Assembly (NCBI GenBank): GCA_948433435.1
Contig: CAOJDX010000002.1
Span: 25,432 to 89,431 of the forward strand
Direction of reading: 5' to 3'
Length of the DNA: 64,000 nt
DNA from: an uncultured Clostridia bacterium
Lineage (GTDB): Bacteria > Bacillota_I > Bacilli_A > RF39 > UBA660
Shown here: in pieces, positions 23,334 through 61,508 of the stretch
Numbering within the stretch: position 1 is the stretch's first letter
Layout: each line of letters begins with the position of its first letter
Notes under the pieces: model-generated
Database searches by the model: none
What the model was told of the DNA's origin: nothing
What the model saw: only the letters and a program-made list of their open reading frames with translations
Made by a program: the position numbers and the translations under genes

Positions 23334-26300
23334 ATGTTAGTTAGGTTTAAAAAAGTGATTAATAATTTACTAAAATTTCATACTACTCAACCCTTTGCTA
23401 ACATAATTAGAGAAAACTATCAATCCATTATTCAGAATTTAGATACCTCTAAAAATTTTCAGAAAAGGCCTATTTATCAATGTGTGTATGATTATCTTAT
23501 CCAGTATGATTATCTTTTGATCGAAAAAGAATTGATTGACTTTATCAATTCCTATCAAGAAAAAAAGAATTATCATTTTCAGTATCAAGAAATCAATCAG
23601 ATTAAAAAAGTTAGTAGACAACTATTAACTAAGCAATTAATGTTGTTAGTAAATGAACAATATCTCTGCTTAATGGAAGAAACAAAAATTAGAAATGCCA
23701 TAAAAAAATTGAAGCAAAATCGGGATATTTCTCTTAATAGATATTATTTGGTAACAGAAAACACCTCTAATCAATCTATTTTTCTTTTAAATCAAGAAAT
23801 CGAGAAGTTAAATAACGAAAAAGTTTTTAGGACCTTTGATCTTACATTACAAAGTCATGGAAAAGAACTTTCTCCAATTTTAGCAGAAGTTAAGAAAACG
23901 GAAATCTTAAAGATTTATTTGTTAAATAATATTATTCATAGCTTTCAAGAAATAAGTGATTTTAAATTACATCATTTTTATCAAAAAAATATTGATCTTG
24001 AAAAATTACTAAATAAAGATCATATCTATTCTTTAATGACAGAAGAAAGTAAACAGTATTATAGAAAAAAAATATTAAAGAAAAGAAGACCCTTTGTATA
24101 CTTAGAAAACCATTTAAAGGAAAAAAAACATATTGGTTTTTTTCTATTTCAACATTCACATTATTTATTTTCTTTAGATTACAAAAATCGTGATATTCCT
24201 AATACTAGTAAGACTATGATAAATCTTTCACAGTTTTTTTCTAATAAAGAGCAGATCGATCTATTTTTTAAAGAATTAGAGAAAAATATTGCTCCTAATA
24301 TTTATTTTAATATCATCAATGAAAATCTTACTTTGGAAGAAGAGCTTGTTAATTATCTAGAAAAAAAATGTCGCATATTGAATAAAAGTCAAGAAGTGGT
24401 TCAAGTTTACCAGAAGAATCAAAAAATAGTATATTCTAAAAATATAAAGTATGTCCTTTCCCTTTATGCCGTTTCCAAAATAGAAATAGATAAAATTAAA
24501 TATTTACTTGGAATTATGGATCATCCTCTTAATCTAAGTATAATGGACAGGAAGAGAAAAGAACTTAATGGTACTGCTCTACTTTTATTACAAGTTTTTA
24601 ACGAAAATGAATGTAGTTTATTTAACAGACTTTATCAAAAAGAGCAAATGTTATTAGGGCAAAACGAGTTTTATCGATTAAAAGAATATACAACATTAAA
24701 CAGAACTTTTTTGCACGATCAGTGTTTAAAAAGGAAGTTTTTAAAAGCAAAATATATAAAAAATATTATCTTTCATAGTAATCATTCCCCTACTTTTAAT
24801 CATTATTTAAAAAACTATCAAAAATTTTTAAAGAAAAATATATATAACTTAAAAAATAGTTCTTGGCAACAAAAAATACTAATTTTATCACAATTCAAAA
24901 AAGAATTCATTTATTTTTTCTTTTTACTCACTATAATTATTTTTCCTTCTTGGTTCTTATTTAGTGTACAATTTATCTGTCTTCTTGTTTGGCATCATTC
25001 CAATCATTTTTTATCTTCCTTTTTGAAAGCATTTAATGAATATACAAATATACCTACTTATCTTTCTCTACTTATTACTAAAAGGTATTATTCAAAACAG
25101 TACTTTTTCAATATAGGAATCGGAATTCTTCTTTTATTACAAAATAATCTTGTTGGTTTTATCTTTATTTTATCTCTTCCTCTACTATTTTTTATGAATA
25201 AAGTTAAGGAAAGTAAAAACGAGAAAATTGATCAACTTGCAAAAGAAAATCTCTCTAAAAAACAAAATTATGCTATTCCTAATATGGCTATTTTATCTAA
25301 TCAAAATATTTCTTTGTATATCGATAAAGAAGAAAATTCTACCTGTATCTATCATCATTTTAAAGTAAGTACTATAAATTATAAAAAAGATATTTCCTTA
25401 ATTGATTTAGATCTTTGTAAAGAACTTGAAGTGATCGATTCGACAATTTCTTTTGATAACAATAGAGTAAAAATAACAAAAACATATCAAGATATTCAGG
25501 CTATCATCGAACCTGTCATTTCTCCCTTACATGATGTAGAAATTAAAAAAATCACATTGCAAAACAATAGTAAAAAAAGAAAGAAGATTTTATGCAAAAT
25601 ATACTTTCCCTATGAAATAGATGAAAAGTTATTAGATGATTCTTGTTTAACTATAAAAAAAGAAAAGCATAATCTTTATGTTACAGCATATTTTTTAGGT
25701 GGTAACAGTGATTACTCGATTCTTAATACTTTGACTAATACTCAAAAGATAGCTGCTTACCAGCAAAAAGAAATTTATTTCATTACAACTTTTTCAAAAA
25801 AATTAGAGAAAAAGGAAGTTCTACATCTTTATCATAGTCCTTTTAAATTTTCTTCATTTTATGCTTTAATCAAAAAGGAGGAAAATTCTATTCATCATCT
25901 TCTTTTAAGTTATCTTTGGCAAATTAATAAATTTAAACTTAATGAGGCTAGGGAAAAACTACTTACATATAATTATTTGTCAACAAAGGAATTACAAAAA
26001 TTCGGAATTACAGAAAACATTCCTATTATCTTATTAGATTTAAAAAACAGTTCTCAAAAAACTCTCATTAAAGAAATTATTTTATTTTTTAAATATTGTA
26101 AATTGAATCACTTTATAGTTCATTTAATTATTCTTAATGGTGTTGATCAGCAATATATTGAAGAGCTTGTGTATCATATTAACCAGGAAAATAGTAGTTT
26201 GACAAAAATTCCTGGAAGTATTTATCAGATTAATGAGCAAGAATTAACTCCTGATGAAATCATTTTATTCTATACTTTATCATACTTAACGATTGATGCT

Positions 26301-28115
26301 TCTAATTATTCTTCTTTAAAAAATTATGTACAAATGATGAGCGATAAAATATCCATAGCTGAACATTCCCCTATTAAAATTAAAAAAAGTTTGCCTATTT
26401 CTTTTGTGGAGGAGATGAATAATTTTAAAGATCAAACTAATATCTATGATGCTAAAAATAAAGAATATTTAATTTTTAATCAAACCAACGAGAATGTTTT
26501 TTCACATATCTTTACCTCTCCCACTTCTTTAAAAACAGTTACCAATCTTAGAGCAAAAAGTTATACCTATTTAGATTCTCAAATTAGGTTATCCTCTAGA
26601 GAAGAGATATTAGTCAACCATTCTAAAATTTCATTTGCTGTTGTCAAATACGGGCTAGGATATACTTCTTATTTAGCCAAAACAAAAAAATTGGAAATAA
26701 CAATGACAGAATTTATCTCTTACTTTGAAAAGATAAAATTTTATCAATTAAAGATTAAAAATATCAGCAACGATGATTTAAAACTATCTCTACAATATAT
26801 TATTCATCCTATTCTGTCAGAAAATATTCTAAATAGTGAGCGATATATTTTATGTAAATATGACTATAAGAAAAATTTAATTACTCTGCAAAACAAACTA
26901 AATTCATATTTTTTAGAAAACACCTGTTTCATTACTTGTACAGAAAAAATTGCCAAAGTTCAATTACATGACCCTGTACAAAAAACAATAGAAATCAAAA
27001 AAAATATTTTTAAAGATTCTTCCTGTGAATTTGCCTTTACTTTAGGAATAACAAATTCCAGTCATTTAGATTATTTAAAGGAAAAATATTCCACTATTTC
27101 TACTATTAATACTGCCCTTGCTATCAGTATCAATTATTTTAAAACCATTTTAAATACTGTAACAGTTCAAACTAATGATGAAAAATTCAACCAAATGATG
27201 AATCACTTTTTATTATATAAAACAGTTACTGAAAAAGTGTTTCAACAAGATGATTTTGTTAGTTTAAAACATTGTTGTACTATTATAAATATTTTACCTA
27301 ATGTTGTAAAAGATGTAATTATTAATTGTGCTAAAAAGCCTCTAAAAGGTGAAGAAATATTTGATTTAATTCATGCTGTTTATGTTTATATTATTAAAAC
27401 TGAACAAAAAGAAATTTTAACGGAATTGATTAATGAACATATTATTCTTTATTATATATTAGAGAAAAATCTTCAACGTTTTATTGATGAAGAGCACAAC
27501 CCATATCATGTATATGAAACAATAAAATTCTTTATTGAAATTATCAAAATTTATGACAAAAAAATTGACACCACTTCTTACTTGCAAAAATTAACTATAT
27601 TTAAAAGAAAAATTGAAGAAAAAGTGCCTACTAATTTAATAGATGAGACTTACAAAATATTAATAGATGCAAAACATGAAGACGAAAAAATATATTGTTC
27701 TAAATATATGCCAAAAGATTTTTTTAAGCAAGAATTTCTTTTTCTGCAGTTATTGTTAAAACAAAAAAGTTATGATTTACTGTATTATCATTACCAAAAT
27801 ATGATTCTCCCCAATCAACAAAATAGGAATTTACTTAATCAATATGCTGGAAATTTTTATCAAATGGGTTTAGAAGAAATATTAGGTTTTCAAAAAAAAG
27901 GAATAAAATTATATATATCTCCACATCTTCCATCCTCTATTAAGGATTATCAAATTACCTATCGTTACTTAAATACACTTTATCACATTAATATCATTCT
28001 TCAGCATAAAGAAAATAAAATTATGATAGACAACTACAAGATAACTACTGATTACATAGAATTAAAAAATGATCATAAAACTCATGAAGTGCTTATTTAC
28101 AAGAAAAGAAAATAG
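23334..28115 (+). CDS. Giant hypothetical protein (1593 aa) with a central transmembrane cluster
   Basis: It is an uninterrupted 4.8-kb ORF in an AT-rich genome with a good RBS. Hydrophobic helices lie at about aa 520-620. No confidently recognisable catalytic motif was found. A terminator hairpin follows at 28108-28135. Confidence 0.6.
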   Translation: MLVRFKKVINNLLKFHTTQPFANIIRENYQSIIQNLDTSKNFQKRPIYQCVYDYLIQYDYLLIEKELIDFINSYQEKKNYHFQYQEINQIKKVSRQLLTKQLMLLVNEQYLCLMEETKIRNAIKKLKQNRDISLNRYYLVTENTSNQSIFLLNQEIEKLNNEKVFRTFDLTLQSHGKELSPILAEVKKTEILKIYLLNNIIHSFQEISDFKLHHFYQKNIDLEKLLNKDHIYSLMTEESKQYYRKKILKKRRPFVYLENHLKEKKHIGFFLFQHSHYLFSLDYKNRDIPNTSKTMINLSQFFSNKEQIDLFFKELEKNIAPNIYFNIINENLTLEEELVNYLEKKCRILNKSQEVVQVYQKNQKIVYSKNIKYVLSLYAVSKIEIDKIKYLLGIMDHPLNLSIMDRKRKELNGTALLLLQVFNENECSLFNRLYQKEQMLLGQNEFYRLKEYTTLNRTFLHDQCLKRKFLKAKYIKNIIFHSNHSPTFNHYLKNYQKFLKKNIYNLKNSSWQQKILILSQFKKEFIYFFFLLTIIIFPSWFLFSVQFICLLVWHHSNHFLSSFLKAFNEYTNIPTYLSLLITKRYYSKQYFFNIGIGILLLLQNNLVGFIFILSLPLLFFMNKVKESKNEKIDQLAKENLSKKQNYAIPNMAILSNQNISLYIDKEENSTCIYHHFKVSTINYKKDISLIDLDLCKELEVIDSTISFDNNRVKITKTYQDIQAIIEPVISPLHDVEIKKITLQNNSKKRKKILCKIYFPYEIDEKLLDDSCLTIKKEKHNLYVTAYFLGGNSDYSILNTLTNTQKIAAYQQKEIYFITTFSKKLEKKEVLHLYHSPFKFSSFYALIKKEENSIHHLLLSYLWQINKFKLNEAREKLLTYNYLSTKELQKFGITENIPIILLDLKNSSQKTLIKEIILFFKYCKLNHFIVHLIILNGVDQQYIEELVYHINQENSSLTKIPGSIYQINEQELTPDEIILFYTLSYLTIDASNYSSLKNYVQMMSDKISIAEHSPIKIKKSLPISFVEEMNNFKDQTNIYDAKNKEYLIFNQTNENVFSHIFTSPTSLKTVTNLRAKSYTYLDSQIRLSSREEILVNHSKISFAVVKYGLGYTSYLAKTKKLEITMTEFISYFEKIKFYQLKIKNISNDDLKLSLQYIIHPILSENILNSERYILCKYDYKKNLITLQNKLNSYFLENTCFITCTEKIAKVQLHDPVQKTIEIKKNIFKDSSCEFAFTLGITNSSHLDYLKEKYSTISTINTALAISINYFKTILNTVTVQTNDEKFNQMMNHFLLYKTVTEKVFQQDDFVSLKHCCTIINILPNVVKDVIINCAKKPLKGEEIFDLIHAVYVYIIKTEQKEILTELINEHIILYYILEKNLQRFIDEEHNPYHVYETIKFFIEIIKIYDKKIDTTSYLQKLTIFKRKIEEKVPTNLIDETYKILIDAKHEDEKIYCSKYMPKDFFKQEFLFLQLLLKQKSYDLLYYHYQNMILPNQQNRNLLNQYAGNFYQMGLEEILGFQKKGIKLYISPHLPSSIKDYQITYRYLNTLYHINIILQHKENKIMIDNYKITTDYIELKNDHKTHEVLIYKKRK

Positions 28116-29339: not shown

Positions 29340-29693
29340 CTAATTATTTTTAATTTTTTCTTGATAATACTTAAATAATTCTTTAAATCTATTATAGTGA
29401 ACAATTTCTCTTTGCCTAAGCCATAATAATGGACCTATTACATCAGCATCTTCTGCTAAATCAATTAAGTTTTCATAAACTGCTCTAGCTTTTTGTTCTG
29501 CTGCCATATTCTCAGAAATGTCAGCTAGTGGATCGCCAGTAGTAGCAAAATATGTTGTTGTAAAAGGTACTCCATTGGCATCTGTTGGGAATAAAGCTCT
29601 ACTATGTTCCGCATAATGAGGATCAAGTCCAGCTTCCTTTATTTCTTCTATTGTAGCATCCTTCATTAATTGATAAACCATAGTTGAAATCAT
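29340..29693 (-). pseudogene. cotJC: cotJC 3' fragment (Mn-catalase-family spore coat protein, C-terminal part), split by prophage insertion
   Basis: The translation (QYCKN)ELAHVEMISTMVYQLMKDATIEEIKEAGL... continues exactly where the 60904..61110 fragment stops (...LLTDIGTEEL). There is no RBS or start of its own. Confidence 0.8.
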
Positions 29694-29729: not shown

Positions 29730-31898
29730 TCAGTCAAAGGGCAATAAAATAATATCAATAGTGAAATTTTCTTTTAAATAGCGGCCTCCATGGTCTTTTT
29801 TATATATAATTTTCTTAATTATTGTAGATAATAATTCGTTTTTTTCTTCGGCTGTCATTTCTGGAGTATAACTACTTAAAACATCTTCTAATATAGGTAT
29901 AGCCTTTTTCTTGCTAGTAAATTCATGAGCTATATTATTTATGTTAGGCAACTCTTGTTTTTGATTTAATAATGCTTCTAACTGATTATTTAAAACATCT
30001 ATTCTTTTTTTAAAAAGTTCTTTAGTATATGCTCCAGCTTCTACTAATTCACAGGCTTTCTCAATTTGTGCGTTTACTTTGTCAATTTCATTGTCTATTA
30101 CCTGTATAACTTCTTTGTTATTATTTATTTCTTTTTGTACTGCTTCTTTGTAATTATCAATATATAATTTATAATCTTCTTTTATTGATCTTAATGTTTG
30201 TAATATTTTACTTTCCACTAATTCTAAATCGCTTGAAACACACTTACATCTAGGGCGACTACACATAAGAGTATCGGCGTGCGCTGGCGTTATACTTTCT
30301 TCTAATGTAGTTACTGCTTTATCAAACTCTGTAGTTTCTATATTCAATAATTTCTTTAGATCTTCCCATTTATTAGCGTATGGCATGGTAAATTTATCGT
30401 CATTACTAGCAAACCAATGATCTACGCAGCATTTAGATACCTTTAAGGATCTAGCTATATCGTTTAGACTATAGTCTCCTTTATGTTCTCGAAGTAATAA
30501 TCTTAACTTAGTCTTATTAACTTCGTAAACTCGTTTTACTGTAGGTTTTGTGTCTTTTCTTATATAGTATGGTCGTCTCGTCATATTATTACCGCAATAC
30601 CCACAAACAACTAAACCAACAAGAGGGTTTTTTAATTCTTTCTCGTCTGGAACAGTTTTAACTCGATTACTTAAAAATTTTTCTTGTATTCTACTACGAT
30701 ATTCTTCATTTAAAATACTATTTTTGTAATGTTTACCTTTTACGAATAAATAATCATTATTATTAGGGTTTTTTCTTACAATTTTACCATTTACTAAAGT
30801 TGTAACAGTTTTTCGTCTGTCCCAAGTTAAATAGCCGTATATAGTTGGACTTTGTAATATATTTCGTATCATATTGGCCGTCCACTCTTTAGCTTTTCTA
30901 GGAGTGATTTTAAGGTAGTTAAAATAGTGTGCTATGTTTGTTGGTCTCATATCGTCAATAATTATTTTAATTGTTTCTCCAGGGTTAAAAATATCGTTAG
31001 GTATATGTATATGATCTATTTTTATATGATAAGCAGCTGATATACTCTCTAATGTATCATTTTCTTGTAATGTATAATCAACACTTTTACTATCTACCGT
31101 AAGTTTTATATCATAACCAATTTTTAAATCTAAATTATGAGTAATTATTACTTTTTTATGAGTACCAAAAGTTTTAGCTATTGTAGATACCGTATCATTT
31201 TCTTTTACTATGTAAGTAGTATTAAGACCGTCCAAAAATAAATCAGCCATAAGTCTAACTACTTTAGCCTCCGACTCATTTTCAACTAACATAAAACCTT
31301 TTTCGTTAGGTATTTTTATTTTATTAGATCCATAAGGAAGCACAGAGCCCACATAATTACCTTCTTTAACGCTTCTTACACGCCCACGAGATAATATTCT
31401 TTTGGTATATTTTAAGTATTTTCTTGACTGATATAAGCCGTCTTCAAAATAGGAAAGATCATCTTCATTGTCAAGATCATAAATTTTCATAGGAGTTACT
31501 ATTTTTGTACCAGTATACTTAAATGTTTGAGCTATGATACCCTGGTCTATAGTGTTACCACGTGCTAGACGTTCTATTTCAATACATATAACGCCTTTTT
31601 TATCGTCGTTTTCTATTATAGATAATACTTCTTGCATTACTGGACGATTTTCGATAGTGTCTCCAGACGCAACCTCTCTATAGATATTATGCTCTGGTAT
31701 AGGTTTACCGAAAATACTTATAATAAAGTCCTGTAAGTCTTTTTCATGACGTTGTAATGTTTTTTCTATAGACTCGTCTTTAAAATAGTCCATATCTTTA
31801 CGTGATTTTCTTAAGTATATTATTAACATATCTAGTATTTCATCTATAGATAGATTACTAGGTATATGTAAAATTCTTAAAAATGTATCTAAATTCAT
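29730..31898 (-). CDS. Large serine recombinase (SpoIVCA/SprA-like integrase)
   Basis: It has an N-terminal resolvase catalytic domain (YLRKSRKD...IERLARG) and long recombinase and zinc-ribbon/coiled-coil domains. Its stop codon lies inside the attL arm. Confidence 0.9.
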   Translation of the reverse strand: MNLDTFLRILHIPSNLSIDEILDMLIIYLRKSRKDMDYFKDESIEKTLQRHEKDLQDFIISIFGKPIPEHNIYREVASGDTIENRPVMQEVLSIIENDDKKGVICIEIERLARGNTIDQGIIAQTFKYTGTKIVTPMKIYDLDNEDDLSYFEDGLYQSRKYLKYTKRILSRGRVRSVKEGNYVGSVLPYGSNKIKIPNEKGFMLVENESEAKVVRLMADLFLDGLNTTYIVKENDTVSTIAKTFGTHKKVIITHNLDLKIGYDIKLTVDSKSVDYTLQENDTLESISAAYHIKIDHIHIPNDIFNPGETIKIIIDDMRPTNIAHYFNYLKITPRKAKEWTANMIRNILQSPTIYGYLTWDRRKTVTTLVNGKIVRKNPNNNDYLFVKGKHYKNSILNEEYRSRIQEKFLSNRVKTVPDEKELKNPLVGLVVCGYCGNNMTRRPYYIRKDTKPTVKRVYEVNKTKLRLLLREHKGDYSLNDIARSLKVSKCCVDHWFASNDDKFTMPYANKWEDLKKLLNIETTEFDKAVTTLEESITPAHADTLMCSRPRCKCVSSDLELVESKILQTLRSIKEDYKLYIDNYKEAVQKEINNNKEVIQVIDNEIDKVNAQIEKACELVEAGAYTKELFKKRIDVLNNQLEALLNQKQELPNINNIAHEFTSKKKAIPILEDVLSSYTPEMTAEEKNELLSTIIKKIIYKKDHGGRYLKENFTIDIILLPFD

Positions 31899-50409: not shown

Positions 50410-50681
50410 GTATCGGTACTGCGGAGGTCTTACGAATATTATATAAGCATTATGGCGGCTTAGACTGGTTTGAGGGTAAGCCGTCTTTTTTATTAGGTAA
50501 ATGTTTAGATAATGCTATAAAAAAAGAAACTGAGCTGCCTAAACTAATTAACGAAATAGTTAAGAAAATATCTAATAAAAAGTCTTTTGTTCCTCAATTA
50601 GAACAAAAGTCTAAAAAGAAAATGCGAAGCGCAGAAGAAATTATGAAAGATTACGGTTTAGGAGGTGTTAAACTTGGCTAG
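50026..50681 (+). CDS. Tail assembly chaperone -1 frameshift fusion (GT-like)
   Basis: The slippery heptamer T_TTT_TTA lies at 50391-50397. The -1 frame is open for a further 94 codons and ends at TAG 50679-50681. Confidence 0.5.
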
Positions 50682-52827
50682 TATATTTAGTTTATATGGA
50701 TCTATATTTATTGATAATGAAAAAGCTAATAAAGCTTTAGACGGTACTACTAAAAAAGGAGAAAGTTTCGCTTCTAAACTAGGAGGCGTTTTTTCTAAAG
50801 TAGGAAAAGGAGCTCTTGTTTTAGGAGGTACTCTTGCTACTGCTGCTACTGCTATTGGTGGTTTAGCGATCAATTCTCAAAAGAATATGGATCAAGCTAT
50901 GAACTCATTTATAGCACAAACAGGAATTGCTAAAAATGAGTCTGCGGAGTGGAAAAAAGCTCTTGAAGATATATACAAAGGTAATTATGGCGAAAGTTTC
51001 GAAGATATAGCCAACTCTATGGCTTTAGCTTCACAAGAATTATACGAGTTTGATCCTTCACAAATAAAGGCCGTAACAGAGAACGCCTTAGCTCTGCGTG
51101 ATACTTTTGGAGTTGAAGTTAATGAGTCTATTCGAGCCTCAAAAGCTTTGATTACTCAATTTGGAATATCAGCAGACGAAGCTTATAACTTAATGGCTCA
51201 GGGAGCACAGAACGGCCTAGATTTCTCAGGAGAGTTAGTAGATAATATTAACGAATATTCCGTACAATTTGGGAAGTTAGGTTTATCGGCGGAAGATATG
51301 TTTAATATCTTTCAAAGTGGCGCAGACGCTGGAGCTTGGAACTTAGACAAAATCGGCGACGCCGTTAAAGAATTTTCTATTAGAGCCATAGACGGATCTA
51401 ATACGACTATTGAAGGTTTTACAAAGTTAGGTCTTAATTCTGACGAAATGGCTAAAAAATTCGCTGCTGGAGGAGATACTGCTAAAAAGGCCTTTTATGA
51501 AACTATTGACGCTATTAAAGCTATGGACGATCCAGTACAACAGTCTATTGTAGGTGTAGATTTATTCGGTACTATGTGGGAAGATCTAGGACCAGAGGTC
51601 GTTACACAGCTAGGATCTATACGAGATATGTACGACGGAACAGCCGACTCTATGAATAAAATTAAAGAGGTAAAATACGACGATATAGGTAGTATGTTCG
51701 AAGGTTTGAAGCGTAATGTAGAAATGCTCTTACTTCCTTTAGGAAATGCCTTAATGCCTCTTATTGTTTCTATCATGAATTTAGTCTTAAATAATATGCC
51801 TTTGATCGAGGGTTTGATTAACCAATTAACCCCAGTCATTACTCAATTATTTACGGCTCTTATTCCACCGATACAGACTTTTATAGAGACAGCTTTACCA
51901 ATGTTCGCGACACTTGCGGAGCAGCTTTTACCTATATTTATAAATTTACTTACGACTTTATTACCTCCTATTATGGAAATCGTACAAGCACTGCTTCCAG
52001 TTTTTGTAGAATTGATACAAATGTTACTTCCACCTATACTACAGATCGTAGAAATGATCTTACCTTTATTACTTAGTCTGATACAACCACTTTTACCTTT
52101 ATTACAGCCTATCTTATCTTTATTACAACCATTTATTGATTTACTGATGTTAATTTTACAACCATTGACTCAATTACTTAACGTAATTTTGCCGCCTTTA
52201 ATGTCATTACTGAATATTATTATTCAAACTATTATACCTATGCTTTCGGCTCAATTTACGTATGTCGCTAATATTATAGGTAGCGTCTTCGGAAATGCTT
52301 TAAGTTATATCACTTCACAAGTTCAAGTTGTTAAAAATATTTTTATGAGTATAATCGACTTTGTCAAAAATGTGTTTACTGGAAATTGGCGAGGTGCCTG
52401 GGAAAATGTCAAAAATATTTTTAGTAATATTATTTCTGGTATTGCGAACGTCTTTAAATTTCCTATTAACCTTATCATTGACGGTATGAACGCATTTATA
52501 AAAGGTCTTAATAAATTAAAGATCCCAGACTGGGTACCTGGTGTTGGTGGAAAAGGTTTAAATATACCTTTACTTAAAAAGCTTCGTGTTGGTATGGAAT
52601 ATGTACCTTATGACGATATGCCAGCTTTACTACATAAAGGCGAACGTGTTTTAACCGCCGACGAAGCTAAAGAATATCAAGAAATAACATCAGCTGTTAC
52701 TAATAATGAAACTACTAATAATTGGAATATAACAATTAACTCAACAGAGCCTTTATCTCCAGCAGAAACAGCTCGACAAACGCGTAAAGCTATTCAAGAG
52801 TTAAATCTAGTACATGGAAAGGCGTGA
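50665..52827 (+). CDS. Tail tape measure protein
   Basis: It is 720 aa with helical and hydrophobic repeat blocks. The likely start is TTG 50674, after AGGAGG. Confidence 0.85.
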   Translation: MLNLASIFSLYGSIFIDNEKANKALDGTTKKGESFASKLGGVFSKVGKGALVLGGTLATAATAIGGLAINSQKNMDQAMNSFIAQTGIAKNESAEWKKALEDIYKGNYGESFEDIANSMALASQELYEFDPSQIKAVTENALALRDTFGVEVNESIRASKALITQFGISADEAYNLMAQGAQNGLDFSGELVDNINEYSVQFGKLGLSAEDMFNIFQSGADAGAWNLDKIGDAVKEFSIRAIDGSNTTIEGFTKLGLNSDEMAKKFAAGGDTAKKAFYETIDAIKAMDDPVQQSIVGVDLFGTMWEDLGPEVVTQLGSIRDMYDGTADSMNKIKEVKYDDIGSMFEGLKRNVEMLLLPLGNALMPLIVSIMNLVLNNMPLIEGLINQLTPVITQLFTALIPPIQTFIETALPMFATLAEQLLPIFINLLTTLLPPIMEIVQALLPVFVELIQMLLPPILQIVEMILPLLLSLIQPLLPLLQPILSLLQPFIDLLMLILQPLTQLLNVILPPLMSLLNIIIQTIIPMLSAQFTYVANIIGSVFGNALSYITSQVQVVKNIFMSIIDFVKNVFTGNWRGAWENVKNIFSNIISGIANVFKFPINLIIDGMNAFIKGLNKLKIPDWVPGVGGKGLNIPLLKKLRVGMEYVPYDDMPALLHKGERVLTADEAKEYQEITSAVTNNETTNNWNITINSTEPLSPAETARQTRKAIQELNLVHGKA

Positions 52828-53695
52828 TTATATGGAAAGAACTTTAATATATAAAAACCATAAAGGCGATATGATTACTTTTACATATAAACCGCCTTTT
52901 CTTCTAGGTATCTGCGACGGTTTTCACGAAGTTGTTGGAACTGTTAATACTATTAGCTCAGCCTATGGCGTTGGTACAAAATGGAACGGTACAAGTATTG
53001 GAGAGCGAGAGCTTACAATAAAAGGAACTATTACAGAAAACGTACAAGAAAATAGACTATTATTATTCGATATGTTTCCTAGAAATAGCGAAGGTACTCT
53101 TTACTATTATGAAGGTAATATCGAAAGAAAGATAACTTGTGTTGTTGAAAAAGTAATAATACCAGAAAAAGGAACATATACAAGAGATTTTTCTATTTCT
53201 CTTGTTTGTCCTAACCCTCGCTTTTCAGCTTTAGCTGCTACTGTATTATCTATGGCTACATGGACGCCAGCGTTTAAGTTTGCGTTGAAGATCCCACAAA
53301 GTACAGGTATTAAGTTTGGAACTAAAAATACTACTTCTATGGGAACAACGCAAAATACTACTGAAATTGATTACGGTATGACAATAACTTTTAAAGCAAA
53401 TGATACAGTCGTTAACCCATATTTATTTAATGTAAATACTAGAGAAATGATACATATAGAAAAAACTTTGTCTGTGGGCGATAAAATAGTTATTACTACT
53501 CATATAGATAATAAAAACGTAATCTTTATAAACGCTTTAACTGGCGAAGAAGAAAACATCAATTATTTAATGACGTATGGTAGTAAATATTTACAGATAC
53601 CTAGCGGAACTAATACATTTAGATCTGGTGCTGATAGTGGCGAGGACAACCTAGAAACTACTATCGAATTTTTACCAGAATATGAGGCGGTATAA
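52814..53695 (+). CDS. Distal tail protein (Dit)
   Basis: It is assigned by position and size. Confidence 0.65.
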   Translation: MERRDYMERTLIYKNHKGDMITFTYKPPFLLGICDGFHEVVGTVNTISSAYGVGTKWNGTSIGERELTIKGTITENVQENRLLLFDMFPRNSEGTLYYYEGNIERKITCVVEKVIIPEKGTYTRDFSISLVCPNPRFSALAATVLSMATWTPAFKFALKIPQSTGIKFGTKNTTSMGTTQNTTEIDYGMTITFKANDTVVNPYLFNVNTREMIHIEKTLSVGDKIVITTHIDNKNVIFINALTGEEENINYLMTYGSKYLQIPSGTNTFRSGADSGEDNLETTIEFLPEYEAV

Positions 53696-54747
53696 TGAAA
53701 GCTATATTTTTAAATGTGTATGATCGCGATTTAAACTTTTTAGGAGTTATTGATAGTTATAGCTCTTTACGTTGGCGTCGTAAATACTTTGAAGCTGGCG
53801 AGTTTGAGTTAAATATAAACCCTACAGCTAATAACTATAGACTCTTAAAGGCTGATAACATTATTGTTAGAGGTGATTTAACAGAAAATGACGAGTTTGG
53901 TATTATTGACTCTTGGAAGTTTAAAGAAGATAAGGAAAAAGTTACTATTACTGTATATGGTAGGTTTGGTTTATTCTTATTAAATAGAAGGATCATAAAA
54001 AATCGTATCAATTATAGAGGAACGTATATCGGAGGTTTTAGGAAATTACTTACTTCCATGCGTCCATTTAAGAAACTAGATATTACAGATAGTGATATTG
54101 TTAGTGGTAAAGTTGATTTTCAATGCACTTATAAAAATGTATATACATATCATGAGAAGTTATCTAAAGCGTCTAATATTGGTGGTAAGATCGTTTTAGA
54201 CTTAGAGAATAAGCGTTATAAATATGTTAATTATGTTGGAAAAGATAGAACAGAAGATCAAAAAGTAAATACTAGGTATGAATTTAGCGAAGATAAATCA
54301 AACTTAGATACTACAGAACACACTTATAGCAGAAAAAACATGATTACTGATGTATTAGTCGGTGGAGCTGGCGAAGATACAAACAGAATTATGAGGACTG
54401 TTACTAATGTTACAGCAGATACTCACGACTTCGATATTAGAGAGGCTTTTGTAGACGCTAAAAACGAAAGTAACAAAGATCTATCAGCAGCTGAATATAA
54501 CGCTATCTTGGACGATTTAGGAAAAGAAAAGTTAACAGATCCTACAGAAACTTTCGAAGCTACAGTACACTCTACCGATTATAGAAAATATTGGGACTTG
54601 GGCGATATTGTAAATATCAAAAAAGAAAGTTGGAGTATGACTAAGAAACAACGAATTACCGAAGTTGAAGAAGTTATCGAAAAAGGTAAACATGATGTAA
54701 TACCTACTTATGGTAACCCTATAGCAGAAACTTTTAATAATGATTAA
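53695..54747 (+). CDS. Tail-associated lysin / baseplate hub (Tal-like)
   Basis: It is assigned by position and size. Confidence 0.55.
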   Translation: MKAIFLNVYDRDLNFLGVIDSYSSLRWRRKYFEAGEFELNINPTANNYRLLKADNIIVRGDLTENDEFGIIDSWKFKEDKEKVTITVYGRFGLFLLNRRIIKNRINYRGTYIGGFRKLLTSMRPFKKLDITDSDIVSGKVDFQCTYKNVYTYHEKLSKASNIGGKIVLDLENKRYKYVNYVGKDRTEDQKVNTRYEFSEDKSNLDTTEHTYSRKNMITDVLVGGAGEDTNRIMRTVTNVTADTHDFDIREAFVDAKNESNKDLSAAEYNAILDDLGKEKLTDPTETFEATVHSTDYRKYWDLGDIVNIKKESWSMTKKQRITEVEEVIEKGKHDVIPTYGNPIAETFNND

Positions 54748-55683: not shown

Positions 55684-56805
55684 ATGTTGGGTGTAATCAA
55701 TGTTCGAGATAAAAGATCGAACAATTTAAGTAAGGTTTACGGAGTAAGACGTTCCCTAGCTTCTTCTTCGTCAGCCTGGGAAAGAATTGAGGACGCTGTA
55801 GGTTTAGTAGCTAACGCACAAGTGGGAACAACTGCTGTAAGAAATGATTTCGATAGTATTTACCCATGGAGCGATATAATTACTTGTAATTATAATAATT
55901 CTACTAAAAAAGTAACCGCTTACTATGGCGACGCTAATTTCTCATTTACTGGAGGTACTAACATACAAGTTATGACTATTATTCCAGAGTTTTATTACAG
56001 ACGTTATATTTCCGACGGTTACGAATATATCTTTATTTCTAAAGACAATTTAAGTGGCTTTATTAAGAGTAAAGAATTTATGATCGGACGTTATACAATG
56101 TCTGGTACTTCTTCTGGAGTATATAGTCGTAGCGGACAAGCTCCATTTACTAACCACACTATCGCAGAGTTTAGGCAATATGCTAAAAACTTGGGCCCTG
56201 GCTGGAGTCAATTAGACTGGCATTATTTCTTAATACAGCTACTTTATTTAGTAGAATATGCAGACTATAATATTCAGTCTAAAATTGGACCAGGACATAC
56301 TAACGCTAATAATACAGCACCTAAAAATAGCGGTGGCTGTAATGCTTTAGGTATGAAATCTGGTTGTATGGTTAAAAATGATACGAACTCTGTTGTTTAT
56401 AGAGGTATCGAAGATTTATACGGTAATGTATGGCAATTTTTCGACGGTCTTAATATAAATAACTATCAAGCTTATATCAATTATAACCCTAGTACCTACG
56501 CTTCTGATGTGTTCGACGGAGATTATCATAAGTTAGGCTATGTTAATAGTTCTACAAGTAGTAGTTATATAACCTCTTTAGGTTATGATCCTAAAAACCC
56601 TTTAGTAGGTCTTCCTACTGATGTAAACGGTAGTAGTAATACTTATATGTGTGATTATTATTGGACTCAAAGCGGAGAACGAATAGCTCTTGTCGGCGGT
56701 GCTTGGAATAACGCATTTCATGCGGGGTTGTGGTGTTGGATCTTTTACGAGGCGTCTTCTGCTTATGGCGTGGGCGTCGGAGCTCGACTTCTTAAAACCA
56801 GTTAG
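55684..56805 (+). CDS. DGR target: receptor-binding tail fibre with C-terminal variable region
   Basis: Its last ~35 codons are the VR (ALVGGAWNNAFHAGLWCWIFYEASSAYGVGVGARLL). This region is homologous to the downstream TR, as expected for a C-type-lectin-fold DGR target. Confidence 0.7.
   Translation: MLGVINVRDKRSNNLSKVYGVRRSLASSSSAWERIEDAVGLVANAQVGTTAVRNDFDSIYPWSDIITCNYNNSTKKVTAYYGDANFSFTGGTNIQVMTIIPEFYYRRYISDGYEYIFISKDNLSGFIKSKEFMIGRYTMSGTSSGVYSRSGQAPFTNHTIAEFRQYAKNLGPGWSQLDWHYFLIQLLYLVEYADYNIQSKIGPGHTNANNTAPKNSGGCNALGMKSGCMVKNDTNSVVYRGIEDLYGNVWQFFDGLNINNYQAYINYNPSTYASDVFDGDYHKLGYVNSSTSSSYITSLGYDPKNPLVGLPTDVNGSSNTYMCDYYWTQSGERIALVGGAWNNAFHAGLWCWIFYEASSAYGVGVGARLLKTS
56687..56795 (+). repeat. 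DGR variable region (VR)
   Basis: It is the 3' end of the tail-fibre ORF. From ttgtgg to cgacttctta it is identical to the TR except where the TR has A. Confidence 0.7.
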
Positions 56806-56933
56806 CGGGGGTTTGGGGGCGGCCAGCCTCCCATAAATAAAAAATTAAATTACCGACTGAAAGTCGGCGACGCTCCATTTTAAAATTTGGGGAAATGGTG
56901 TGTGCGCTTCGGTCGTTCTTGTCCTTTTGAGAG

Positions 56934-57363
56934 CTCTTGTCGGCGGTAGGTGGAACAATGCTCTTAATTGTGGCTTGTGGTATTGGAATTACAACAACGC
57001 GTCTGCTGATTACAGTATCAACGTCGGAGCTCGACCACTTATATTAAGATTAGGGATTTGATGTGTATGCTTCGGTTTGTGATTACTGCTCTTGTCGGCG
57101 GTAATTGGTACGAGCACACTCGCGCTGGCTTGTGGTGTGTTACGCTTAACAACCTAGCGTCTAACGTGAACTCTACGATCGGAGCTCGACCACTTGTATT
57201 AAAAATAGGGATCTGGTGTGTATGTTTCGTTGTTTATGACCGTCTACTCTTGTCGGCGGTTGTTATGTCGACCACCTTATGTGTGGCTTGTGGTATTGGA
57301 ATTGTAATCAAGCGTCTTCTATCGCATGGACTAACGACGGAGCTCGACCACTTGTATTAAAAA
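56934..57363 (+). repeat. Three tandem VR/TR-like cassettes (R2 56934-57046, R3 57089-57201, R4 57247-57360), period ~157 bp
   Basis: Each cassette starts with ctcttgtcggcggt and ends with cggagctcgaccactt(a/g)tattaa. Each is an in-frame alternative ALVGG...GLWxW...GARPL module. Confidence 0.75.
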
Positions 57364-57404
57364 TATGGGATCTGGTGTGTGTGCTTTGATGTTGACGCTT
57401 GCTG

Positions 57405-57512
57405 CTCTTGTCGGCGGTAATTGGACTAACAATACTAGATGTGGCTTGTGGTATTGGAACTTTAACGAGGCGTCTTCTGCTTATAACGTGAACGTCGGAG
57501 CTCGACTACTTA
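57405..57512 (+). repeat. DGR template repeat (TR)
   Basis: It is the last cassette, about 125 bp upstream of the RT gene. All nine 3'-region mismatches to the VR are TR adenines. Confidence 0.7.
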
Positions 57513-57637
57513 TCATTAAATTCCTTACACATCATTTTCCTTAGCGCTTGCTAAAAATTAGTCGTTCTGGGTGGGTTTAGTAGGTTTATTCTCGAAAAAC
57601 TCGCAGGCAAATATAAAAATTATAAGGACCAGGAAAT

Positions 57638-58702
57638 ATGAAAAGAACAGGTAACATTTATCAAAAAATCATAGAATTAAGCAATATTGAAGCAGCTATT
57701 TATAAAGCTAGCAAAGGTAAAGGAAATCGTAAGAGTGTTGAAAAAATACTCGACTCTCCTACATATTACGCTTTACAGATACAAAAAGCATTACAAAATA
57801 AAACGTACAGGCCTAGTCCATACGTTGAAATGAAAATACACGACGGAGCTAATAAGAAGGAACGTATTATTTATAAACCACACTTCTACCCAGATCAGAT
57901 AGTACACTGGGCGTTAATGCTTCAATTAGAGCCTTTACTTATGAAAGGTATGTATGAGTTTTGCTGCGCTAGTGTTAAAGACCGCGGTATTATGCGTGGT
58001 ATGAGACATATTAAAAAGATCTTAGTACAAGATCGTAAGTATACTAAATATTGTTTAAAGCTTGATATTAAGAAGTTTTACCCTAGTATTGATAAGCAGA
58101 TACTGAAAAATAAATTTCGTAGGATCTTAAAAGACAAAGATACTCTTAATCTTATAGACCTTATTATTGATAGTGGTATCGAAGGTATACCTATCGGAAA
58201 TTTCACGAGTCAATGGTTTGCGAATTTTTATTTACAGGATCTCGATCATTTTATAAAAGAACACTTAAAAGTAAAATATTACGTGCGTTATATGGACGAT
58301 ATGGTATTATTTTCTAACAACAAAAAAGAATTACGAAAAATCAAAATAGAAATCGACAATTTTCTAAGTAAAGAAAAGCTAACGATAAAAGAAAATTGGC
58401 AGCTTTTCAAAACTGAGTCTAGGCCTCTTGATTTCTTAGGTTATCGCTTCTATCGTGGGTATACTACTCTTAGAAGAAGTAATTTCTTAAGAATTAAGAG
58501 GCGTGCGAAGAAAATGAGTAAGAAAGATCACATAACTTTCCACGACGCCGCAGCTATGATTAGTTATAGCGGCTGGCTAAAACATTGTAACTCTTATAAT
58601 TATCAACAGAAGTACATAAAACCGTATGTAAATTATAAATTGTGTAAGGAGGTTATAAGAAATGAAAGTAAAAAAGACAGAAAGCACAATAAGACCACTT
58701 AA
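57638..58702 (+). CDS. DGR reverse transcriptase
   Basis: It has the RT motifs including YVRYMDDMVLF (YxDD) and the DGR-specific IPIGNFTSQWFANFYL (I/LGxxxSQ), which closely resembles the bRT of Bordetella phage BPP-1. Confidence 0.9.
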   Translation: MKRTGNIYQKIIELSNIEAAIYKASKGKGNRKSVEKILDSPTYYALQIQKALQNKTYRPSPYVEMKIHDGANKKERIIYKPHFYPDQIVHWALMLQLEPLLMKGMYEFCCASVKDRGIMRGMRHIKKILVQDRKYTKYCLKLDIKKFYPSIDKQILKNKFRRILKDKDTLNLIDLIIDSGIEGIPIGNFTSQWFANFYLQDLDHFIKEHLKVKYYVRYMDDMVLFSNNKKELRKIKIEIDNFLSKEKLTIKENWQLFKTESRPLDFLGYRFYRGYTTLRRSNFLRIKRRAKKMSKKDHITFHDAAAMISYSGWLKHCNSYNYQQKYIKPYVNYKLCKEVIRNESKKDRKHNKTT

Positions 58703-59186
58703 CTTTAAAATTGGCGATCACAAAGGCAACCTTATAGAGGTTGTTTTTTTTGACGACATAGAAGAAGTTATAAGGACATCAGAAGACGGAACAGAACAAA
58801 CGGTATATCTTTATTATGAGTACACTATCAAAATAGTTAATAGAAGTGATTTAGAGTCTTATATAAACGAAAACTATGAGACATGGCTACAAATGGCTAA
58901 AGATAACTTTATCGCTTCTAAATCAGCAGAAATAAGAGCAATAAGAGACAAATTACTCGCTGATAGCGACAAACACGTCCTTATTGATAGATTAGGTATT
59001 GAAATACCAGAAACAATTAACGCCGCCACTATGTTAACTGTTATCAAAGATCTATTTAGTTCTCTTGGTAATATCTTAAATGGAGACTGGTCTACTTATA
59101 GACAGGCTTTAAGAGATATTACTAAACAGCCTAACTTCCCATTTGACGTAGATTTTCCTACAATACCTGGAGAAAATAAAGAATAA
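58662..59186 (+). CDS. Hypothetical phage protein
   Basis: It is an ORF downstream of the RT. It is not Avd-like. Confidence 0.4.
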   Translation: MKVKKTESTIRPLNFKIGDHKGNLIEVVFFDDIEEVIRTSEDGTEQTVYLYYEYTIKIVNRSDLESYINENYETWLQMAKDNFIASKSAEIRAIRDKLLADSDKHVLIDRLGIEIPETINAATMLTVIKDLFSSLGNILNGDWSTYRQALRDITKQPNFPFDVDFPTIPGENKE

Positions 59187-60903: not shown

Positions 60904-61110
60904 TTATTGTGTCAATTCTTCTGTGCCAATATCCGTAAGTAGGGCTCTTCCCTGATTATCAGGCATAGTATAGCGTTGATTTAGATAACGAAGTGCCGCA
61001 GCAAGTTCTCCATTAGCACCACCATACTGTGTCACTAATATTTTAGCCATTTTTAAGTTTTTCTTTTTAATATTAACTGGATATTGTAATCTCTTTTCAT
61101 ATGCCCACAT
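60904..61110 (-). pseudogene. cotJC: cotJC 5' fragment (N-terminal 65 aa, premature stop in prophage end)
   Basis: MWAYEKRLQYPVNIKK...GGANGELAAALRYLNQRYTMPDNQGRALLTDIGTEEL matches the CotJC N-terminus and then runs into TQ* inside the phage arm. Confidence 0.8.
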
Positions 61111-61508
61111 TATTTACTACCTCCCTCAAATGGCCAAGCATCTACTTCCCATAAAAATGGGCTAGCATCTAATGAATCGCTATTAACAGTAATTGGTCCA
61201 TATTTTGTTTCGTATTCATCAATAAGTGAATTGGTTTTTCTACGATAATCGTTAAAAAGAGTTAACACAGATTCATCATTTGGATGTAGATCTAAATATA
61301 AATTAAGTTCATGACTAGCAAAACTAACTGCACTTAATTCTAATAATAATTTGCTTTGTTCATCTTTAGCTCTTAAAATAACTGGTTGATAATTCTTATA
61401 TTGGTCATAAAGTTCTGGAAATAAATTTCCTTTCATATATCCTTCTTCTGGTGAATATAAACTGACTGCCCTATTCCCACTTTGATCGTTCAAATTATAA
61501 TTATACAT
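61110..61508 (-). CDS. CotJA/CotJB-like spore coat-associated protein (apparent fusion)
   Basis: Its C-terminal ELNLYLDLHPNDESVLTLFNDYRRK matches CotJB. Its N-terminal GYMKGNLFPELYDQY resembles CotJA. It lies immediately upstream of cotJC. Confidence 0.55.
   Translation of the reverse strand: MYNYNLNDQSGNRAVSLYSPEEGYMKGNLFPELYDQYKNYQPVILRAKDEQSKLLLELSAVSFASHELNLYLDLHPNDESVLTLFNDYRRKTNSLIDEYETKYGPITVNSDSLDASPFLWEVDAWPFEGGSK

Follow-up and report, generated by a model that had tools for sequence, protein, structure and literature searches.

How many templates can a single diversity-generating retroelement (DGR) draw on? The question was raised by a stretch of 64,000 nucleotides (nt) from an uncultured Clostridia bacterium (GenBank assembly GCA_948433435.1, contig CAOJDX010000002.1, positions 25,432 to 89,431 of the forward strand), referred to here as the window, in which a prophage carries a reverse transcriptase (RT) gene behind its last tail gene. 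The theory and engineering of DGRs assume one invariant template repeat (TR), and diversity is thereby confined to the adenines of a single scaffold. A preliminary description of this DNA had proposed a DGR in which the 3′ end of the tail gene, the variable repeat (VR), is repeated just upstream of the RT gene. The repeat was confirmed, but it is not a single copy: a VR-like repeat of approximately 119 nt is present four times in tandem between the target and RT genes, with a period of 155–158 nt, giving five copies in the window (the VR and cassettes c2 to c5). There is thus no single invariant TR per VR in this system (the window has four cassettes, and relatives have up to eight). We consider it probable that the locus is a prophage DGR with a tandem multi-template array (four templates in the window, one to eight in relatives), by which the last approximately 100 nt of a receptor-binding gene are rewritten. 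The features of the element are as follows.

55684..56805, + strand: target, open reading frame (ORF) of the last tail gene (373 amino acids (aa); PHROG 5302 "tail protein", E = 4e-65)
56686..56788, + strand: VR, consisting of a 15-nt 5′ block (GCTCTTGTCGGCGGT), a 75-nt variable part (56701-56775) and the GC block
56776-56788, + strand: GC block GTCGGAGCTCGAC (13 nt) at the VR 3′ end, similar to an initiation of mutagenic homing (IMH) sequence
56814..56833, + strand: GC hairpin GGGGGC-GGCCA-GCCTCCC of the cruciform type, from folding and comparison of relatives
56853..56867, + strand: hairpin CCGACT-GAA-AGTCGG, lying after the target gene and before the array (folding z −2.56)
56890..57044, + strand: cassette c2, with box GGGAAATGGTGTGT (56890-56903), template (56933-57035) and 3′ flank CTTATAT
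57053..57199, + strand: cassette c3, with box GGGATTTGATGTGT (57053-57066) and template (57088-57190)
57208..57357, + strand: cassette c4, with box GGGATCTGGTGTGT (57208-57221) and template (57246-57348)
57367..57515, + strand: cassette c5, nearest to the RT gene, with box GGGATCTGGTGTGT (57367-57380), template (57404-57506) and 3′ flank CTTATCA (57509-57515)
57527..57540, + strand: anti-box ACACATCATTTTCC, present once after the last cassette, the partner of every cassette's box
57541..57626, + strand: spacer RNA, a match to Rfam RF03021 (RT-18) that holds helices 2, 3 and 4 of the model described below
57638..58702, + strand: DGR-type RT (354 aa; IGNFTSQWFANFYL and YMDD; Pfam RVT_1, E = 2e-17; PHROG 1423)

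The RT ORF carries both motifs of the DGR clade, (I/L/V)GxxxSQ as IGNFTSQ and YxDD as YMDD, in agreement with the preliminary description. Its best PDB match was the DGR RT of a Bordetella phage (bRT, 8ub7; E = 3.6e-34), followed at a distance by group II intron RTs (2e-11) and chains deposited as "retron-type RT" (2e-9); these matches gave no sign of the retron or group II affiliation that would speak against a DGR. The RT passed no NCBIfam model, and its matches to the group II, retron and Drt models were far below their cut-offs.

The target was modeled with AlphaFold (predicted local distance difference test (pLDDT) 78.6, predicted template modeling (TM) score 0.83), although the VR part is of low confidence, with pLDDT below 50 at residues 340-348 and 359-373. 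The sole significant PDB fold match of the model was the DGR variable protein TaqVP of Thermus aquaticus (5vf4; Foldseek E = 9e-5, probability 1.00, TM 0.41–0.43), which is the kind of fold that had been suggested for checking the target C-terminus. The two folds aligned over approximately 380 columns, and a weak sequence match fell on the same motifs as the fold match, GNVWxW and GGxWxxxxxxGLxx...GxGAR, which both proteins carry. The identity is only 17–18%, and the present target differs in being a siphophage tail protein. In this C-type-lectin-type gene, the VR is located at the 3′ end and ends 17 nt before the stop codon. The cluster of the target at 90% identity comprises 232 sequences, with VRs on different scaffolds in those sampled; the 30 that were read from this and a neighboring cluster differed mainly in their C-terminal VRs. 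These data support the target as a prophage receptor-binding protein with a diversified C-terminus. The bRT-like RT, the RT-18 spacer, the TaqVP-like target and VR differences confined to template adenines in a pair of relatives (L088 and L089, below) bear out the proposal of a DGR on the distal tail gene, and support a genuine DGR, acting on the distal tail protein, in a prophage that sits within cotJC.

Homologues of the C-terminal approximately 350 aa of the target bear differing N-terminal extensions (P0025-P0120). These match PF07963 (JGI calls some of these proteins prepilin-type N-terminal cleavage/methylation domain proteins), PF18454, PF12571 and PF10651. One of the homologues (P0041, 522 aa, 62% identical) has a VR of the c4 type, which indicates that cassette types are common to otherwise divergent proteins.

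Each cassette consists of a 14-nt 5′ box, a template of approximately 103 nt and a 3′ flank of the CTTAT type. The homology between the VR and the copies stops at the GC block GTCGGAGCTCGAC, the GC-rich element that had been noticed at this place; the sequence that follows is TTCTTAAAACC in the VR and YACTTRT in the copies. All five copies share invariant blocks at their ends (CTCTTGTCGGCGGT and CGGAGCTCGAC) and center (GGCTTGTGGT), and differ by 24–46% elsewhere. The four intergenic copies have an adenine-rich variable part of 75 nt (16–21 A and 3–7 AAY codons), compared with 10 A and 2 AAY codons in that of the VR. The highest values were those of c2 (21 A, 7 AAY codons), which has an open frame and a box pairing at 12 of 12 positions with the anti-box; c3 (17 A, 5 AAY codons) also has an open frame. 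The best match to the VR among the copies in the window was c5. Over model columns 46-101 (the 3′ 56 nt), the window VR equals c5 except for seven changes from A to another nucleotide, with no other change. Over columns 16-101, the comparison with the nearest copy gave 14 mismatches at A and eight not at A.

The use of the templates was examined in relatives, for which 160 loci with RT homologues were fetched and further ones were added through exact-protein look-ups (L numbers denote loci, P numbers proteins and u numbers the cassettes of a locus). No match to 55684-58702 was found by blastn among 50,697 GenBank phage records, and an exact-pattern scan for the VR 3′ flank and hairpin matched only three metagenome contigs and one viral contig. 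Cassettes were counted with a hidden Markov model of the repeat in loci with sufficient upstream sequence. Where the RT was at least 75% identical to that of the window, 2–8 intergenic cassettes were present in 20 of 24 loci, and where it was 60–75% identical, a single TR was present in 28 of 33 loci. The cassettes are diverse, with 88 types in 169 units.

Dynamic programming was used to express each VR as a cassette of its own array or a mosaic of such cassettes (with a switch penalty), allowing free changes at cassette adenines only; the control was the identical search in which C, G or T took the place of A as the free base. Spurious gaps were introduced by hmmalign in a few units; for L088 they gave a false result of 10 non-A mismatches and 3 gaps, and direct inspection showed a relation to u7 with differences at A only. 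The VR was explained by its own array with at most one non-A mismatch in 15 of the 27 unique multi-cassette loci, whereas none of the 27 was explained with C, G or T as the free base. Template–VR differences thus fall at template adenines in the explained relatives as in columns 46-101 of the window. Internal cassettes contributed to the VR in 13 of the 15 explained loci: the donors were internal only in seven, the last and an internal cassette in four, two internal cassettes in two, and the RT-proximal cassette alone in two. Single donors (with A and non-A differences in parentheses) were found for L103 (u3 of 8; 12/0), L106 (u2; 7/0), L006 (u2; 11/0) and L087/L171 (u3; 12/0). Mosaics were found in L004 (u5 and u4; 8/0), L005 (u5 and u2; 7/0), L096 (u9 and u3; 7/0) and L163 (u5 and u4; 9/0). 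In six of six mosaics at the DNA level (L004, L005, L083, L096, L163 and L169), the 5′ piece came from the cassette nearer to the RT gene and the 3′ piece from one lying further upstream. A general rule of mosaic polarity was dropped because L176 shows the opposite order.

Phages with 98.4–100% identity in the RT and in the target upstream of the VR share the cassette order but differ in the donors of their VRs. In one family, the donors were T7 (the last cassette) in L001, T4 in L084, and T11 with T17 in L083. In the family with the array T9-T2-T10-T5-T6-T3-T1, the donors were T2 in L103, T9 in L097 and T6 in L092, and the last cassette T1 was never a donor. L088 and L089 are identical in their flanks and in the whole 1.3-kb array, and their VRs differ at exactly three positions, all of which are adenines of the penultimate cassette u7. 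Variation restricted to template adenines, which the preliminary description had named as the check to be made, was therefore observed in this comparison, on an internal cassette.

The window array is identical to the last four cassettes of L172 and L173. In L172, c2–c5 (c5 being identical) are preceded by two further cassettes, and the whole VR is templated by the cassette identical to c5 (11 A and 2 non-A differences). The L176 VR (P0134) follows the window c4 as far as a junction that lies within columns 67-76, and then the window c5, without any non-A mismatch. VRs of the c4 type were also present in P0041 and P0129, and the 3′ part of the L163 VR derives from the c4-like cassette of that locus.

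The cassettes are intergenic and have no common frame among themselves. Nevertheless, the distance between the anchors is 93, 96 or 99 nt in every one of the 128 distinct cassettes, and the frame of the VR is free of stop codons in each; only 25 of the 128 remained open after shuffling, and in frame +2 the number was 5. Such openness is expected only if the sequences are regularly expressed through the VR.

Every cassette is preceded by the box GGGAYYTGRTGTGT, while the whole array has a single spacer and a single RT gene. The spacer (positions as listed above) has a stem-loop TTAGC-GCTT-GCTAA (57541-57554) directly after the anti-box, followed by AAAA, an internal helix of GTGGGT (57571-57576) with ACTCGC (57599-57604), and a 3′ element, ATATAAA (57611-57617) or TTATAAG (57620-57626), that is the partner of the cassette flank CTTAT. 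It belongs to the Rfam family RF03021 (RT-18), matching at 57542-57618 over the full model (1-84) with 58.7 bits against a gathering score of 41.3. We evaluated a model of four helices in an alignment of 31 sequences, with slid partners and 500 shuffles as controls. Paired cells amounted to 93.3%, compared with 37–49% for slid partners, compensatory changes were present in 20 of 30 pairs, and the observed values were reached in none of the 500 shuffles. Helix 1 (box with anti-box) was paired in 97.5% of cells with compensatory changes in 7 of 12 pairs, and helices 2, 3 and 4 were paired in 84–97%, also with compensatory changes. Examples are GATATGT:ACATATC, AGCGTGT:ACACGCT and TACGGGGTGC:GCACCCCGTA, and for the flank CTTATTTT:AAAATAAG compared with CTTATAT:ATATAAG. 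Of 12 positions, the box paired with the anti-box at 11.8 in internal cassettes and 12.0 in last cassettes, compared with 7.9 after shuffling and 7.3 for the region upstream of the VR. The CTTAT:ATAAG pairing was retained because it covaries. The spacer segments GTCG (57561-57564) and AGTAGG (57580-57585), tried as partners of the template CGAC(TA), were rejected, as they showed no covariation and were unchanged in relatives with CGCC or CGTC. A promoter scan gave nothing above the expectation from shuffles.

The GC hairpin after the VR, which had been recognized in the preliminary description, folds at 56814-56833 and is kept in all relatives; L018 and L104 show one compensatory exchange, from C:G to T:A. 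Its energy is ordinary compared with shuffles (z 0.10). As single-sequence folding energies were no better than those of shuffles, the support for the VR hairpin and the spacer structures is drawn from the comparison across relatives. In BPP-1, the corresponding hairpin is needed for homing (PMC3240598); the GC block and the GC hairpin here may likewise act in homing.

The anatomy can be compared with that of the BPP-1 DGR (mtd-VR, avd, TR, spacer and brt). In both, the target is a tail receptor-binding protein and the VR occupies the 3′ end of its gene; also common to them are a GC-rich block at the 3′ end of the VR and TR, a GC hairpin downstream of the VR, an RT of the same clade and template–VR differences that are specific to adenines. 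The "cPRT Stop" duplex of BPP-1 is formed by the spacer with the RNA upstream of the TR; a short stem-loop and unpaired adenosines come next, and the template:primer duplex consists of the TR 3′ flank and the spacer (bioRxiv 10.1101/2023.10.23.563531). The present element likewise has a helix between the segment upstream of the template and the spacer, and then a short stem-loop and unpaired adenines. The anti-box thus resembles the Sp strand of the avd:Sp "cPRT Stop" duplex, in a partial analogy, and the pairing of the flank with the spacer may serve in priming the complementary DNA (cDNA). In contrast to the one invariant TR of BPP-1, there are four (up to eight in relatives) different tandem templates, each with its own upstream pairing strand; no avd is located between the VR and the templates; and the spacer is approximately 130 nt and of the RT-18 rather than the RT-10 type. 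RT-18 was described as lying near RT genes, without an assigned function, and a DGR role was only speculated for further RT motifs (Weinberg et al. 2017, PMC5737381). The window copy likewise lies upstream of an RT gene, but it is placed here as a DGR spacer, with two long-range helices to the template flanks that are additional to the Rfam model and supported by covariation.

These observations suggest a mechanism in which the array and the spacer would be transcribed together. Any cassette could then dock on the single spacer through the pairing of its box with the anti-box and of its flank with the spacer 3′ element, the downstream cassettes being looped out. The docked cassette would be copied with errors at A, and the cDNA would replace the VR from the GC block inwards. 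The replacement may be partial, which the central and terminal blocks common to all cassettes would make possible, or the RT may switch templates; either would yield mosaic VRs. Cassettes would also recombine and sometimes be overwritten by mutagenized copies, by which the template library itself would evolve.

Several points weigh against this multi-template reading. The evidence consists of assemblies, mostly metagenomic. The only demonstrable donor in the window is c5, for the 3′ 56 nt of the VR; the first 30 variable nt (columns 16-45) have eight non-A differences from c5 and no resident donor, and their best donor among all fetched loci was the TR of L107 (one non-A mismatch). The window VR is identical in three other assemblies, so that activity of the window copy is unproven. 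No VR derived from c2 or c3 was found by regular-expression searches among the 148 fetched proteins in which VR scaffolds were sampled, which is a small sample, and 12 of the 27 multi-cassette loci were incompletely explained by their own arrays. The flank of internal cassettes pairs with the spacer only slightly better (5.9 of 7 positions) than the VR flank does (5.0 of 7), in an AT-rich context. The primer strand of BPP-1 precedes the stop strand, while the candidate partner of the flank here is at the far 3′ end of the spacer; it is this different order of spacer elements that makes the analogy partial. BPP-1 requires Avd for cDNA synthesis (bioRxiv 10.1101/2023.10.23.563531), and the cassette held no accessory protein of the Avd (or HRDC/MSL) kind. 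The ORFs between the VR and the RT gene are only frames running through the cassettes, and the Pfam Avd model (23S_rRNA_IVP) had no match among 16 small prophage ORFs, though a divergent Avd could be encoded elsewhere in the prophage. The relatives have the identical gene order, likewise without an accessory Avd gene.

The dependence of the window VR on c5, together with the lack of c2- or c3-derived VRs in the sample, would be accounted for by an ordinary one-TR DGR, in which c5 is the sole template and c2–c4 are inert relics left when the TR region was duplicated in tandem; such duplications and unequal crossover are indeed evident in the arrays (L163 u4, L174 u5 and L173). Relics should decay, yet every cassette frame is open, the internal boxes remain complementary to the anti-box, and internal donors were identified in most of the resolvable relatives, including c4-type donors in near-identical phages, and this explanation appears quite improbable. 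The internal donors could instead be former last cassettes, if only the cassette adjacent to the spacer is reverse-transcribed and recombination of the array rotates the cassettes. Such rotation would fit the frequent gain, loss and fusion of cassettes, and last cassettes can be overwritten (L175 u5 and L170 u4). It would not, however, account for phages that are 98–100% identical with the same cassette order and different internal donors, for the family in which T1 was never a donor, or for L088 and L089, whose arrays are 100% identical and whose VRs both derive from the penultimate cassette with different A substitutions; internal boxes would also need no conservation. We regard rotation as improbable.

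In the pilE/pilS system of Neisseria and vlsE of Borrelia, information is transferred by DNA recombination without an RT. They resemble the present locus in having one expressed locus and adjacent tandem cassettes that are unexpressed and preserve the frame, with conserved blocks and mosaic products. The cassettes could accordingly be silent copies for RecA-type gene conversion, the RT having no part in the choice of the cassette: the identical blocks at the ends and middle are good recombination substrates, L173 shows a fusion of VR and cassette at the DNA level, and the mosaic VRs look like segmental gene conversion. Conversion should copy faithfully, but the VRs differ from their donors almost only at cassette adenines, which requires mutagenic reverse transcription of that very cassette; even if conversion came first and mutagenesis second, the RT would have to use this cassette as its template. 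These adenine-only differences show that the transfer here proceeds through error-prone reverse transcription, unlike in the two bacterial systems, and gene conversion without the RT is very unlikely. Most unlikely of all is an origin of the array or of the mosaic VRs in misassembly of a locus that is repetitive and heterogeneous. The relatives are for the most part metagenome assemblies, and DGR loci are known to break assemblies (PMC8008677), but array families recur with consistent order in dozens of independent assemblies from different studies, and the window array is found again, identical, as the last four cassettes of L172 and L173. The cassettes are also approximately 40% divergent and hence not collapsible repeats, and the blocks at junctions are short (10 nt at the center; 12 nt for GAGGCGTCTTCT at the L163 junction), which is presumably below the k-mers of assemblers.

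The arrays of the multi-template DGR also change. Fusions between cassettes that carry the 5′ half of c3 were found in L163 (u4) and L174 (u5). Adenine-mutagenized copies of cassettes were found in L005 (u4 from u2, with 10 changes at A and no other), L106 (u4) and L170 (the last cassette, u4), and no cassette was explained as a mutagenized copy with C, G or T as the free base. The last cassette of L175 (u5) appears to have been overwritten, and the L175 VR still matches the L163-u5 type (12 A and 0 non-A differences). Mutagenized and mosaic cassettes within arrays indicate that templates are occasionally overwritten and not strictly invariant. Mutagenized or mosaic cassettes poor in A, some of them proximal to the RT gene, occur at 4215 in L175 (last), 5574 in L005, 5582 in L106 and 2690 in L170. 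At 3503-3661 of L173 (P0122, on 24 contigs), a fusion joins the VR with the 3′ flank of the first cassette, and the protein ends in GARLLM; the next unit follows at a spacing of 158 nt, and both the IMH flank and the GC hairpin have been lost. A VR of this type has probably lost the capacity for retargeting. In the penultimate spacers of L004, L005, L089, L096, L097 and L103, the box is immediately preceded by part of an anti-box (e.g., ATACACATTAAGGGATTTGGTGTGT), which could form a local hairpin and may be a trace of array growth.

A more far-reaching idea, which we regard as possible but rather doubtful, is that the array is a heritable, self-updating library of receptor-binding scaffolds, with switching to any cassette as a coarse search, adenine mutagenesis as a fine search and write-back as memory. 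Switching would take the phage to scaffolds with differences at non-adenine positions, and an occasional return of mutagenized cDNA to the array would turn successful variants into new templates. If true, the library would be a two-tier diversification system with memory, in which one DGR ribonucleoprotein is programmed by interchangeable template modules. Alternative templates that are used and mixed multiply the reachable sequence space and permit changes at positions other than adenines. The cis elements of templating (the upstream strand of the stop duplex and the 3′ flank) would be modular and could be supplied many times per spacer and RT, from which testable rules for multiplexed DGR tools follow. 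The orphan Rfam motif RT-18 gains a concrete role, and the use of multiple templates may help to explain the large, highly variable clusters of tail proteins at 90% identity in phages of gut Firmicutes.

Surveys (MetaCSST; PMC6642488, PMC11661182) have tallied DGRs as having "two TRs" or at least two TRs, for example in Stenotrophomonas sp., and in one of them flagged cases with at least two TRs were dropped from further analysis. As in the present locus, more than one TR was called near one RT in these DGRs, but the tallies are given without a tandem array for one VR, alternative or mosaic use, cis elements for each cassette or overwritten templates. In the literature searched, neither templates in tandem arrays, nor the use of alternative templates or of mosaics, nor separate cis elements for each template were found to be described, and wider absence is unprovable. 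Pipelines that flag and discard multi-TR loci would miss such elements.

The element lies in a siphovirus tail module within a prophage of approximately 31 kb (about 29.7–60.9 kb of the window), for which the following features were identified.

50665-52827: tape measure protein gene, upstream in the tail module
52814-53695: Dit gene, upstream of the target in the tail module
53695-54747: Sipho_Gp37 gene, upstream of the target in the tail module
58662..59186, + strand: gene similar to tail-fibre assembly or chaperone genes (Pfam Phage_tail_APC, E = 1e-10; PHROG 4912), given as context without implying membership in the DGR
60904-61110, − strand: N-terminal fragment of cotJC (68 codons; Mn_catalase profile positions 1-68)
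29340-29693, − strand: remaining fragment of cotJC (Mn_catalase profile positions 72-197)
29730-31898, − strand: large serine recombinase (722 aa; Resolvase, Recombinase and Zn_ribbon_recom domains), adjoining one prophage junction
61110-61508, − strand: CotJB gene

A gene for a 305-aa structural protein is located between the Sipho_Gp37 and target genes. The Phage_tail_APC gene overlaps the 3′ end of the RT gene by 41 nt (58662-58702), an arrangement common to the relatives, and this tail-fibre-assembly-like gene is followed by a holin and a GH25-LysM endolysin. The hairpin at 56853-56867 varies in its stem sequence among relatives while complementarity is kept, and a terminator scan called it on the minus strand only; it may terminate the tail operon or mark where the DGR transcript has its 5′ boundary.

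The prophage interrupts the CotJC/Mn-catalase gene, and the location inside a sporulation gene that had been proposed for it is borne out by the two cotJC fragments, with the large serine recombinase carried by the prophage. Prophage-like elements are known to interrupt sporulation genes, as skin does in sigK and SPbeta in spsM. The present prophage likewise splits a sporulation gene and has a large serine recombinase gene beside one junction; the interruption of cotJC and the DGR cargo are specific to it. A 132-aa ORF upstream of cotJC matches CotJB and, weakly, CotJA, and a 1593-aa ORF at 23334-28115 lies on the host side, directly outside the prophage. The serine recombinase has an additional match to a LysM domain at residues 229-259, which is unusual for a recombinase.

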